A DNA stretch of 64,000 nt from Flavobacteriaceae bacterium. GTDB taxonomy: Bacteria; Bacteroidota; Bacteroidia; Flavobacteriales; Flavobacteriaceae. Shown here piece after piece: positions 41,758 through 57,362 of this stretch. The notes under the pieces are model-generated. The model was not told the origin of the DNA and did not search any database. It was given only the letters and a program-made list of their open reading frames with translations. Numbering within the stretch: the stretch's first letter is position 1; every line of letters begins with the position of its first letter. Where the stretch lies: assembly GCA_043557195.1 (NCBI GenBank), contig CP121314.1:4137582-4201581 (forward strand), read 5' to 3'. The position numbers and the translations under genes were made by a program.

Positions 41758-41853
41758 CTATTTTACATAATATAAATTATAGTACAAATGTTATTATTGA
41801 TATTTTATGAGAGAAGCCCATTTGATAGCTATAATGTAGTATTATGTAAAATA
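41758..41853. repeat. Unit of about 96 bp bounded by inverted copies of the island core (CTATTTTACATAAT ... ATTATGTAAAATA)
   Basis: ATTTTACATAA at 41760-41770 and TTATGTAAAAT at 41842-41852. The interior shares ATTTTATGAGA with the junction sites at 42.45 and 46.73 kb. Confidence 0.45.
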
Positions 41854-41934
41854 TCCCAGAAGCATTTGTTTTCATAAGTATAATTGGAACTTGGGTCATT
41901 AAACTAATAAGCGGTTTGCTTCGCAGCGTTTTTA

Positions 41935-41990
41935 AAACATTATGTATCTATAATTAGCCGTTATGTAAAATAGCCGCTACCAAGCGCTCG
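41935..41990 (+). repeat. Island junction repeat, left-arm copy (R1a)
   Basis: Matches the right end of the R4 module (57308-57362), including the core TTATGTAAAATAG. Confidence 0.6.
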
Positions 41991-42402
41991 ATTGTTTTAT
42001 AAAATCAAATTGCTCTGGCAATTTATTTTACACACAATTTTCCAACGCTTGCCAACGCCAAAATAAAAGCTAACCTTTTTGCTCTTATTAAAAATCGCGT
42101 ATTCGATAAAATGTACGTAATAAAAAATTTTAGACGATTCTCGTGAGCTTGCCACAAGAGCATAAATTTTAAGAAAAATAAAATTCTATGCACTTGTTAT
42201 ATGTAGAACTTCAATTAATCATTTTTTCCTTATTTCATTATCTTTTGTCTTGAAACAAAAGAAACAAAAATTCAAGGCTGCATATAATTTTGGAAACAAT
42301 TAACGGCTCATTCGCTATATTTTAGGAAACATTGTAATTCGTTAAGATTGTTTTGAAATCCATTGTATAATTGAAATTCTAAAGAAACTATATTACTAAA
42401 CC

Positions 42403-42490
42403 CCTAAAATATGGACGCTCATTTCTCCTATTGTTTTAACCAAAATTTTATGAGGCCAAGGTAAACATCGAGATTCTATTTTACATAATA
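42403..42490 (+). repeat. Island junction repeat, right-arm copy (R1b)
   Basis: CTAAAATATGGACGCTCA...CCAAAATTTTATGAGGCCAAG...TTCTATTTTACATAATA aligns with 46693-46779. Confidence 0.6.
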
Positions 42491-55598: not shown

Positions 55599-55717
55599 GG
55601 TTTATGGATTAGTTTTAAGATATTTCATTTTAATAAAAGTAGTATTCAAATATTAATTATTATTAATGCTAATTATTAAAAATATTTTTAATAATTTTAT
55701 TTAATAAATAGGAATTT

Positions 55718-56938
55718 ATGAAATCAAGCTCATTACTGTTAACTCCTGAATACTTCAAGATTATATTAGACAAAGTATACGAAACTTTTATGTCTAAGCA
55801 TAACCTTAATAAGCTTCCTAAAGCTTTGCAATTATATGGTTATGGTGCTTTTAATGATGATAAGCCAAGTTTGAAGAAAGATTTTGAAGACATTGGTTCT
55901 GAATTTATTAACGGGAAATACCTTTATGACAAATCACGAGAACTTGAAAAAGGCAAGCCAATAATTAAACTTAATCAACATTATAAAGACATCATTTTGC
56001 TTTATATAGGTTGTAAAGATTTTGATGTCTTTCTTGAAGAAAATAAATCATCTGTTATCGAGTATGAGAAACAGTATGATTTAATTTATAAAGATAATGA
56101 GGACATAACTTACTATTATTTAAATTACTATTTTGGAGAAGACGATACGATATTAAAAGGGCAAACTATTATTTCTAATAATTGGAAAAAAATTCAGCAT
56201 ATTTTTATATATCCTTTAGAAGATGGGACTTTTAGAGAACATTACAGTAATGGAACTATTAAGCGTCAAGGAGATACTTTAACCATTAAAACTAATACGC
56301 TTTCTGGTGACAGATATATTGAAGGCGCAAGTGAGATTTATTATATAGGTCATAAATCACCATCAAATATAAATTATCTTATTGGTACGTATTGTACTTT
56401 CGATATTTTCACAAATACTGTTGCAGGACGTTCAATTCTTGAAAAATGTGAGAGTAAACAAGTAATGGAAGCGCAATCTAAGACGTCTTTTATTCCACCA
56501 TATATAGCTTTAGAAATTAGAAATAAACGTATTGTTAATAAAAGTTTTGTCCCTAGAAATGCTTTGGAGTTATCGAGCAATAGTCCTTATGCTTCACTAT
56601 ACGGTAAATTACCTGGAACCTATGAGTTGAATTTTAATTTTGATAGTGGCTTTAAAGAGACTTTAAAATTCAAAATATTACCAACAAATTATCAAATAAT
56701 AACGTTAACTGATAATGTGTATATAGAAAAAGATAGATTTGAATTGCTAAACAAAGGATCAGTAATAAATTTTAGATTTAGTTTTTCAGGCATAATAGCT
56801 CTAGAGAGAGTAAATATATATTTCAAAACCTATTATTTAAAAGATGAAAAAGGTACACAAGAAGGTGTTTTTAGTGGTATTGATAATGAAAACAGACTAA
56901 TAAACGGTAGCTTGGTTGTAAATTATGTTCAGAATTAA
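55718..56938 (+). CDS. Orphan cytoplasmic hypothetical protein (406 aa)
   Basis: Long, AT-rich ORF with no signal peptide and no motif I recognise. It is the only plus-strand gene in the island. Confidence 0.55.
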   Translation: MKSSSLLLTPEYFKIILDKVYETFMSKHNLNKLPKALQLYGYGAFNDDKPSLKKDFEDIGSEFINGKYLYDKSRELEKGKPIIKLNQHYKDIILLYIGCKDFDVFLEENKSSVIEYEKQYDLIYKDNEDITYYYLNYYFGEDDTILKGQTIISNNWKKIQHIFIYPLEDGTFREHYSNGTIKRQGDTLTIKTNTLSGDRYIEGASEIYYIGHKSPSNINYLIGTYCTFDIFTNTVAGRSILEKCESKQVMEAQSKTSFIPPYIALEIRNKRIVNKSFVPRNALELSSNSPYASLYGKLPGTYELNFNFDSGFKETLKFKILPTNYQIITLTDNVYIEKDRFELLNKGSVINFRFSFSGIIALERVNIYFKTYYLKDEKGTQEGVFSGIDNENRLINGSLVVNYVQN

Positions 56939-56944
56939 TTATAA

Positions 56945-57362
56945 CATTCCACTCGCATCATGCTTCACTCCTACATCGTCGCATAAAAAGTGTTTATTCA
57001 CGAGGTTAATATTGTTTTAGAGGAGTTCATGCATCTCGTAAACTCGATGTCAATAACATTGTAGAAGAAACTTTAAGGAATAAATTTTTTTTAAGAAACT
57101 CTAGAAAGAACTTTCGCTTTTAACCAAAGCTCAAGTTACACTTCGACTTCGCTCAGTGCAGGCTCCACGCAGAACATTATAGTCATTTTACAACAATTAG
57201 CGAAATAGCGCTTTTAGGCGATATTTGACGTAATTGCAGATATAACAACACATAGTGTTTTATATCGTTTGCAATTATGTCAAGCTAATTGTGGCATAGT
57301 TAGACAAATTAAAATGTATCTATAATTTGACGTTATGTAAAATAGCCGCTGCCAAACGCTAG
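56945..57362 (+). repeat. Island inter-module repeat R4 (full-length copy, ending in the right boundary direct repeat)
   Basis: Colinear with R2 and with the 5' part of R3. Core TTATGTAAAAT at 57333, followed by AGCCGCTGCCAAACGCT as at 41972. Confidence 0.8.

Follow-up and report, generated by a model that had tools for sequence, protein, structure and literature searches.

The stretch analysed here, called the window below, comprises 64,000 nucleotides (nt) of contig CP121314.1 of a marine Flavobacteriaceae bacterium (assembly GCA_043557195.1), has a guanine-plus-cytosine (GC) content of about 33%, and encodes sorting domains of the type IX secretion system as well as TonB receptors with a CarboxypepD_reg domain. 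Beside the conserved gene gcvT it carries an array of gene modules separated by non-coding junctions, and the 11-mer TTATGTAAAAT recurs in these junctions. This core is the XerD arm of dif, the chromosomal site of the XerC and XerD recombinases, and a match to dif itself lies at the inner end of the array. All four slots that hold the variable genes (hereafter cargo) are located on the XerC side of dif, out to ~58.8 kb, and the XerD side abuts the conserved chromosome with gcvT. In the following, we describe the sites, the junctions and the cargo, trace their exchange among relatives and genera, and argue that the extra dif-like sites beside dif bound gene modules that are probably moved by the host XerC/XerD. 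The features are collected in Table 1, in which S1 to S8 denote the eight copies of the core in order of position, T1, T2 and T4 denote classes of site besides dif, and X, Y and R denote non-coding repeats.

Exactly eight exact copies of TTATGTAAAAT are present in the window, all within 41760-57343, with plus-strand starts at 41842, 41961, 46689, 50818 and 57333 and minus-strand starts at 41760, 42478 and 46767. These are the coordinates and strands reported in the initial annotation of this DNA, and the rest of the 64 kb holds no further copy; variants with one mismatch occur elsewhere in the window at chance level only. The same annotation had argued that chance could not account for so many copies, and this is borne out by 100 dinucleotide-preserving shuffles, in which the mean was 0.39 and the maximum 3. 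It had also placed a copy at every module boundary, and indeed all the intergenic boundaries between gene blocks (41520-42744, 46202-46811, 50547-50864 and 56939-57378) carry at least one. The eight copies are not independent events, being members of a few repeat families.

Predicted dif sites of Flavobacteriaceae are given in the supplement of Kono et al. (2011, PMC3025954), namely TTGTACTATAATTTATATTATGTAAAAT for Gramella forsetii, TTGACCTATAATTTATATTATGTAAAAT for Flavobacterium johnsoniae and ACGAACTATAATTTATATTATGTAAAAT for Flavobacterium psychrophilum. The minus strand of 41760-41787 agrees with the first of these in 28 of 28 bases, and with the second and third in 26/28 and 25/28, the differences being confined to the outer XerC arm. 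Its layout is that of a 28-bp dif, with an 11-bp XerC arm, a 6-bp spacer and an 11-bp XerD arm, and the site is conserved beside T1 in many genera. Judged by this match, 41760-41787 is the chromosomal dif of this genome, and because of the same match TTATGTAAAAT is recognized as the XerD-binding arm of dif. The corresponding XerD arms are TTATGTTAAAT in Escherichia coli and TTATGTAAACT in Bacillus subtilis. At ~38.3 kb, a distance of 3.5 kb from dif, gene orientation becomes convergent and the sign of the local GC skew switches; the skew here follows the gene strand, and the window covers 64 kb of a chromosome of ~4.2 Mb.

Five of the remaining copies (S2, S3, S5, S7 and S8) belong to complete dif-like sites, in which a fixed 7-bp spacer follows a XerC-like arm that ends in (C/T)ATAA. 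The other two, S4 and S6, are XerD half-sites, which share with dif the sequence TA, the arm and AGAAT. The T1 site (S2) is identical in the loci L256 and L270 and is followed by a conserved tail, ATCCCAG...GGGTCAT, which extends to ~41905, while the T2 29-mer of S3 is identical in Arenibacter (L268) and in a TARA scaffold (L270). A further class, T4, consists of a XerC arm, a 9-nt spacer (TGTTCTGCG) and the arm TTATGTAACTT, and terminates the conserved leader sequence called R-left; S4 and the T4 sites are in direct orientation. In 79 unique metagenome copies of T1 the two arms are kept but the middle of the spacer varies, which is the pattern expected of a recombinase site. A scan of one genome per species with a 16-base degenerate pattern, most matches of which were chance matches from AT-rich genomes, left ~21 informative Flavobacteriaceae loci, where the left neighbour of the core is TTGTA-n-CTATAA plus 6-7 nt, and the right neighbour is of three recurring types.

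Table 1. Repeats, sites, junction parts and genes of the array (window positions; arms and spacers are written XerC arm-spacer-XerD arm)
Feature	Positions	Strand	Description
R	46356-46700, 50576-50828, 56943-57344		~400-nt non-coding repeat ending in the core, 3 copies
Family D8	42405-42490, 46694-46779		86-nt repeat carrying the core, 2 copies, 84% identical
Family D12			22-mer carrying the core, 4 copies, 22/22 identical between S3 and S5
S1	41760-41787	-	Chromosomal dif, TTGTACTATAA-TTTATA-TTATGTAAAAT, 6-bp spacer; XerD side faces gcvT
S2	41824-41852	+	T1 dif-like site, GATAGCTATAA-TGTAGTA-TTATGTAAAAT, 7-bp spacer; head to head with dif
S3	41943-41971	+	T2 dif-like site, TGTATCTATAA-TTAGCCG-TTATGTAAAAT, 7-bp spacer
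X	41972-42404		Conserved non-coding body (~430 nt), aligned across eight loci
Y and S4	42405-42490	-	86-nt repeat of family D8 with its half-site
S4	arm 42478-42488	-	XerD half-site; AGAAT on Y side, no XerC-like arm on cargo side
Cargo 1	IetS 42745-45111, IetA 45113-46201	-	Anti-phage pair
R-left copy 1	46356-46545	-	Conserved leader at 5' end of cargo operon; T4 XerC arm at 46532-46542
Hairpin	46581-46639		Two degenerate head-to-head dif-like sites; XerD-like arms TAATGTCAAAT and TTATGTCAAGC
S5	46671-46699	+	T2-type site, TGCATCTATAA-TTAGCCG-TTATGTAAAAT; direct repeat of S3, identical spacer, 4728 bp apart
Y' and S6	46700-46777	-	Y' (67 nt) with its half-site; with S5, the 89-bp junction of the initial annotation; 84% identical to 42405-42490
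S6	46767-46777	-	XerD half-site; no XerC-like arm
Cargo 2	46812-50546	-	MsrQ-like ferric-reductase membrane protein, O-methyltransferase, SnoaL-domain protein, AraC-type regulator
R-left copy 2	50576-50793	-	Ends in intact T4-type site
T4 copy 2	50763-50793		Intact variant, CTGTATCATAA-TGTTCCGCG-TTATGTATCTT, 9-nt spacer
S7	50800-50828	+	Dif-like site, unclassed, CATTATCATAA-TCAGTCA-TTATGTAAAAT, 7-bp spacer; head to head with T4 copy 2
Cargo 3	50865-56938		Cytosine/purine-type permease, 345-amino-acid weakly dioxygenase-like protein, TonB-dependent receptor, 406-amino-acid protein
R copy 3	56943-57343		R-left with 26-nt insert (57141-57166), hairpin (57225-57283) and S8
S8	57315-57343	+	T2-type site, TGTATCTATAA-TTTGACG-TTATGTAAAAT, 7-bp spacer
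Cargo 4	57379-58740	-	419-amino-acid protein with Reg_prop repeats, then R-left remnant; outer array end
R-left remnant	58708-58735		Family D9, after the protein gene of cargo 4
DUF7486 gene	58910-60079		Conserved, beyond the array

The sites are components of a larger junction element in the order dif or T4, T1, T2, X, Y and XerD half-site, and the general order outward from the XerC side of dif is dif-T1-T2-X-Y-half-site-cargo-R-left/T4-T1-T2-X-Y-half-site-cargo, repeating. Many marine Flavobacteriaceae show this alternation of junction element and variable cargo on the XerC side of dif. The block from dif to Y (41760-42490) aligns in eight loci from Aquimarina, Algibacter, Cellulophaga, Croceitalea and uncultured Flavobacteriaceae, in which gcvT does not adjoin it, and X is 80-100% identical in L268, L270 and metagenome loci. 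With a 30-nt T2 pattern, more than 120 exact matches were listed in marine metagenome contigs, which is a lower bound, and the counts given below for metagenome loci, slots and cargo refer to the matches listed. Among the 92 loci with adequate upstream sequence, dif lies ~200 nt upstream of T2 in 56 and R-left takes its place in 22; T1 is usually found ~118 nt upstream of T2, and Y with the half-site downstream of it in 79/98 loci. Canonical T4 sites number 43, and 38 complete cargo slots, measured from a half-site to the next R-left, span 0.56-9.5 kb.

Several observations concern the non-coding parts of this element. X and Y (41972-42477) are without an open reading frame (ORF), are kept at 80-100% across genera and in more than 100 metagenome contigs, and include, besides direct TTGCCAACGC repeats, a CCTTGAT...ATCAAGG stem whose loop is rich in A; they could be an accessory sequence, an origin or a small RNA. 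No Rfam match was obtained in X/Y or the whole window at gathering thresholds, or in 41-58 kb by E-value, save for a chance tmRNA fragment (E = 0.66); the window holds no tRNAs, and 11 related loci are likewise devoid of Rfam and tRNA matches. A structured RNA was also considered for the 440-nt repeat and rejected, its folding as a whole being unremarkable (z = -2.0 and -1.5). In addition, one uncultured Flavobacteriaceae contig (L108) carries two near-identical ~3.7-kb tandem units, each with T1, ~650 nt, a half-site and a 206-amino-acid gene, and a 670-amino-acid gene between them, which looks like a tandem duplication of a junction-plus-cargo unit.

The junctions within the window are deletion derivatives of the general form. 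The initial annotation had drawn attention to an 89-bp palindromic junction between the first two modules, in which two cores face each other across 67 nt. The spacing and the total length are correct and the cores are inverted, but the complementarity is limited to arms of ~12 nt, and the DNA fold does not rise above shuffled controls (46689-46777, z = -0.97). This junction is a T2 arm fused straight to Y, with X missing, derived by deletion from a ~530-bp junction; far from being a recurrent form, the fusion is found, among all the loci fetched, in this window only. Similarly, inverted copies do bracket the modules as that annotation had stated, but each pair mixes a complete site with a XerD half-site.

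Genuine folding is seen elsewhere in the array. The hairpin at 46581-46639 folds as DNA at -16.6 kcal/mol (z = -6.3), that of R copy 3 reaches z = -6.5, the R stem comprises 27-29 bp, and the dif/T1 pair also folds (z = -5.0); homologous hairpins are present beside dif in L035, L007, L255 and L267. The XerD-like arm of T4 is divided by a 26-nt insert, CTTCGACTTCGCTCAGTGCAGGCTCC, at 46496-46521 and 57141-57166. Near-identical 25-mers occur in L364, L348, L298, L356 and L273/L274, for example within the R-left hairpin in L364, and their differing contexts suggest a tiny mobile insertion. A 66-nt segment (50623-50688 and 56990-57055), which is present in R-left copies 2 and 3 and missing from copy 1 and most metagenome copies, is a further indel polymorphism of the R-left leader. 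The cargo-side edge of R-left is abrupt. At this cargo-proximal end there is an inverted repeat, TTATGC-N17-GCATAA (46358-46407, 50578-50627 and 56945-56994), and the minus strand reads GGGAAGCATAA-TGTGTG-TGGAATG, like a XerC arm plus spacer, exactly where conservation stops.

The cargo of the first slot is an anti-phage pair, identified with PADLOC as IetS (1134 bits) and IetA (451 bits) and with NCBIfam as IteS and IteA. Slots in metagenome contigs contain AriA/AAA_21 with RloB, DNA methylases, TIR/ThsB, nSTAND3, IetAS, TonB receptors, transporters and beta-lactamases, and 103 of their 138 cargo ORFs run from R-left towards the half-site. R-left was considered as a promoter of the cargo and set aside, as the sole Bacteroidetes-type -7 box seen by eye lies in the cargo-specific region upstream of ietA. 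The initial annotation had noted that no recombinase is encoded in the window; likewise, we detected no recombinase domain in any island ORF or in the other window ORFs tested, and none appears in the 25 commonest Pfam families of 124 cargo proteins among the matches listed. Neither xerC nor xerD lies in the window, and these results support the view that the recombinase acting on the sites is encoded outside it.

Comparison with relatives demonstrates that the cargo turns over in place. GcvT of this genome is at most 93% identical to that of any named genus, the closest being Hyunsoonleella, and two close relatives, L255 and L256, were picked by GcvT identities of 96% and 98%. Starting from gcvT, L255 has dif, the hairpin, X/Y and the half-site, then AAA_13 and DUF2130 genes and R-left, so that AAA_13 and DUF2130 occupy the slot that is equivalent to the IetAS slot of the window; homology between the two starts 4 nt from the XerD arm of S4. 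L256 has different genes beyond X. In Hyunsoonleella jejuensis the DUF7486 gene is syntenic and lies ~1.8 kb from dif, compared with ~17 kb here. The expectation that modules in related strains would come and go precisely at the cores is thus realized in part: different cargo is found in the same slots, but the break in L256 falls inside X and not at a core.

The same module has also passed between genera. The IetA proteins of Winogradskyella eckloniae, Arenibacter and Allomuricauda share 99%, 96% and 93% identity with that of the window, more than is seen for the housekeeping protein GcvT across genera. The W. eckloniae locus (L267) shares 4,006 bp with the window at 96.5% identity, comprising the R-left end, IetA, IetS, the half-site and Y, and its own dif lies within 500 bp of the shared segment, beside different chromosomal genes. 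In L268, L270 and L273, junction elements stand on either side of IetAS-type cargo, and their T1 and T2 29-mers are identical to those of the window. The boundary of the cargo is sharp at the nucleotide level: in 36 unique contexts the half-site arm carries ~2 bits, and information falls to ~0 two nucleotides past the arm. In three samples, short-read metagenome contigs stop within dif, 1-2 nt inside the XerC arm/spacer border. A search for empty slots, in which a XerD arm would abut R-left, found none, the shortest gaps being 61 and 79 nt.

A variant of the IetAS cargo was observed in L268/L269 (Arenibacter sp. N53), L270 and L271, where a 96%-identical IetA is accompanied by a longer IetS (895 amino acids) and by Multi_ubiq/ThiF (ubiquitin-like/E1-like) genes. 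The same junction elements flank this cargo, and the conjugative-transposon genes TraM and DUF4138 adjoin it; the arrays may thus have a further means of transport, on conjugative elements or next to them.

Two other features of the window lie outside the array. Between dif and gcvT there is a small ORF (41525-41692, minus strand; 55 amino acids from a TTG start); its DNA sequence is retained in the close relative L256 and, less strictly, in L255, and it may encode a small membrane protein. A ~31-nt sequence (38303-38333), which separates the convergent AMP-binding and YebC genes and matches itself inverted in relatives, probably terminates transcription in both directions where gene orientation changes.

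In our judgement, these features are probably best explained if the extra dif-like sites beside dif bound gene modules that are moved by the host XerC/XerD. The initial annotation had proposed recombination or insertion sites that assemble the modules, either as attC-like junctions or as terminal inverted repeats of stacked elements. Recombination sites that delimit modules are supported by the XerD arm of dif, the differing cargo of relatives, the 96.5% identical module in another genus and the boundary that is sharp to 2 nt, and the two more specific forms of the proposal fall away. Catalysis by XerCD, the choice of the active sites and the route of cargo capture are what we infer beyond this. 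Where spacers match, recombination would insert circular units at dif or a T-type site, excise units that stand between direct repeats and invert segments enclosed by inverted sites. S3 and S5 bracket with their common spacer a 4,728-bp unit comprising X, Y, the S4 half-site, IetS, IetA and R. Recombination between the two would free this unit as a circle of the same length with one T2 site, TG(T/C)ATCTATAA-TTAGCCG-TTATGTAAAAT, and the circle could re-enter at any T2 site. The result would be a cassette-like, horizontally exchanged island at the replication terminus.

Among known systems, the array was compared with arrays of integrative mobile elements exploiting Xer (IMEX), including those at Vibrio cholerae dif1 (CTXphi, TLCphi and VGJphi), the gonococcal genetic island and EcloIMEX. 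As in these, integrase-less elements are located at dif, are flanked by dif-like sites and accumulate on one side of a functional dif. On sequence features the array is of the IMEX type: it lies at the chromosomal dif and is flanked by direct dif-like sites (S3 and S5, with identical spacers), it has no integrase of its own, and, with respect to mobility, the IetAS module recurs beside dif in Winogradskyella and relatives have other cargo or none. In the CTX and TLC arrays of V. cholerae, sequential integration of IMEX puts the elements on one side of an intact dif, and a perfect dif at the XerD-side flank with all the modules on the XerC side, as found here, is what such sequential integration predicts. 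The attachment site of TLCphi has a degenerate arm, and that of CTXphi is a hairpin of two inverted dif-like sites, which the R hairpin and the dif/T1 pair resemble; their similarity in folding to this single-stranded site makes the entry of modules as single-stranded DNA conceivable. Unlike IMEX, the present modules are without phage, replication or transfer genes, their conserved part is a non-coding junction, and they form many small, cassette-like cargo slots for which no activation factor is known.

A second parallel is provided by the dif modules of Acinetobacter, which are bounded by pdif sites on Rep_3/OrfX plasmids (Ambrose, Xiao & Hall 2026, PMC13141974), with chromosomal examples (PMC12907356). 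They too are arrays of gene modules that lack a recombinase, and the XerC/XerD-type sites at their boundaries often have inverse orientation; the modules are exchanged among replicons, some are without an ORF, and the identity of the spacer governs which sites react. In contrast to complete inverse 28-bp pdif sites with 6-bp spacers, the pairs 42478/46689 and 46767/50818 each consist of a half-site and a site with a 7-bp spacer. Likewise, the modules of the window do not alternate and share single sites throughout, as the orientation, which alternates from S3 to S7, is the same at S8 as at S7, and the junctions have several sites. The present array is chromosomal, anchored at dif and found in Flavobacteriaceae, with spacers of 7 and 9 nt instead of 6 and several boundaries formed by XerD half-sites. 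Its junction is a non-coding segment of 0.75-1 kb with three or four sites, not a single shared 28-bp site, and its cargo consists largely of anti-phage and uptake genes, not of resistance and toxin-antitoxin genes.

Within the same phylum, PhiCjT23-like Flavobacterium prophages and Bacteroidales microvirus proviruses are flanked by dif motifs (PMC9719478, PMC3091885), and have been inferred to use the host XerC/XerD at a dif with a TTATGTAAAAT-type arm. These are single 6-8 kb elements of single-stranded DNA with Rep and capsid genes, whereas the array has no viral genes. A viral origin of the junctions was considered and rejected: the junction sequences were not found in IMG/VR, the X motif has no match there, all 31 matches of a 17-mer from the hairpin are chance or coding matches, and the same holds for most matches of the dif-like pattern with a 7-bp spacer; dif plus AGAAT was found in 4 viral contigs. 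With integron cassettes the array shares ordered, mostly co-oriented units, nucleotide-sharp boundaries and a conserved sequence upstream of each unit, but it has neither IntI nor any other tyrosine recombinase in the tested window ORFs and no attC-type structure, its sites are dif-like, its junctions are ~1 kb long, and its platform is the dif of the terminus rather than attI. Modules that exploit Xer are thus of a known kind, and the junction element with its dif-anchored cassette array in Flavobacteriaceae is a new variant; no description of such an element, or of chromosomal Xer-site cassette arrays in this family, was found in the open-access literature.

Several findings weigh against movement of the modules by XerC/XerD. 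Instead of the 6 bp of dif, the spacers of T1 and T2 have 7 nt and those of T4 have 9 nt. Neither cargo boundary has a Xer-like sequence on its cargo side, S4 and S6 being without a XerC-like arm, and therefore simple integration of an attP at dif does not explain how cargo is captured. The near-identical relative L256 diverges inside X, at window position 42176, and not at a site, which means that other processes also act. In addition, T2 spacers usually differ within arrays, which would limit recombination, T4 is disrupted in two of its three copies here, and the orientation of S7 and S8 is direct, not inverse. Moreover, homologous exchange could take place through the conserved junction repeats.

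This last point leads to the main rival, according to which the dif-like sites are relics of old Xer integrations and the modules now turn over by homologous recombination between R-left, X and Y after DNA uptake or conjugation. The junction elements, 80-100% identical across genera and present on both sides of the cargo, would serve such exchange well; the segment shared with L267 ends within R-left and at the Y/X border instead of at complete sites, the break of L256 lies inside X, and the disrupted T4 copies and unlike spacers fit the same picture. Homologous exchange does not, however, predict that cargo starts 2 nt past the XerD arm in 36 independent contexts or that strictly conserved arms are combined with variable spacers, nor does it explain why arrays are found solely on the XerC side of dif. 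We therefore regard it as an unlikely explanation when taken in place of Xer activity, although exchange through the conserved junctions probably contributes.

It is considerably less probable that T1, T2 and T4 are substrates of a different, dedicated tyrosine recombinase encoded elsewhere, with XerCD uninvolved. The spacer lengths, which are unlike that of dif and fixed for each class, would suit such an enzyme, and Bacteroidota are generally known to encode many XerC/XerD-like integrases, but none was seen in the island or among the commonest cargo families, the arms do not differ from those of dif, and dif itself anchors the array.

A regulatory role, in which the 11-mer would be part of a promoter, operator or terminator reused at operon boundaries, is very improbable. 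TATAAT stands 6 nt upstream of the plus-strand copies, and R-left is at the 5' end of most cargo operons, with the predominant co-orientation of the cargo ORFs described above; a promoter of the form TATAAT-N6-core with a shared leader was accordingly entertained, and was abandoned on the match to dif, in which TATAA is the inner XerC arm. The position and direction of the copies with respect to genes are also inconsistent, S4 and S6 being at the 3' ends of operons and S5 and S8 pointing away, and the absence of the motif from the other 48 kb of the window, together with the exact match to dif, speaks against a generic promoter or terminator. Finally, that the cores are terminal inverted repeats of stacked transposons or miniature inverted-repeat transposable elements, or integron attC sites, is barely credible in spite of the inverted pairs around modules 1 and 2 and the strong hairpin in R, as neither a transposase nor IntI was found, target-site duplications were not noted (no systematic search for them was made), the inverted pairs combine a complete site with a half-site, and the 89-bp junction neither folds above shuffled controls nor occurs in any other locus fetched.

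If movement by the host XerC/XerD is accepted, a fuller and more tentative picture can be drawn, which we put forward as a possibility that falls short of even confidence. Marine Flavobacteriaceae may possess a platform of Xer-dependent, integron-like cassettes at the terminus, built on a conserved non-coding junction with four classes of dif-like site (spacers of 6, 7, 7 and 9 nt). Mostly co-oriented cargo, such as anti-phage systems and TonB receptors, would be captured and exchanged precisely at the XerD arm and spread between genera without a recombinase of its own, X and Y would act as accessory or control sequences, and the hairpin pairs would allow entry as single-stranded DNA.

Should the host Xer recombinases indeed move these modules, exchange of the kind known from dif modules and IMEX would not be peculiar to the plasmids of Acinetobacter and the phages of Vibrio. 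The sites would constitute natural Xer substrates with 7- and 9-nt spacers and half-sites, which are relevant to how single dif modules move, and the T2 30-mer and the junction element would serve as sequence markers of such variable islands in genomic and metagenomic data. For the abundant marine Flavobacteriaceae, the array would represent a widespread, cassette-like route by which anti-phage and nutrient-uptake genes are traded at the terminus.

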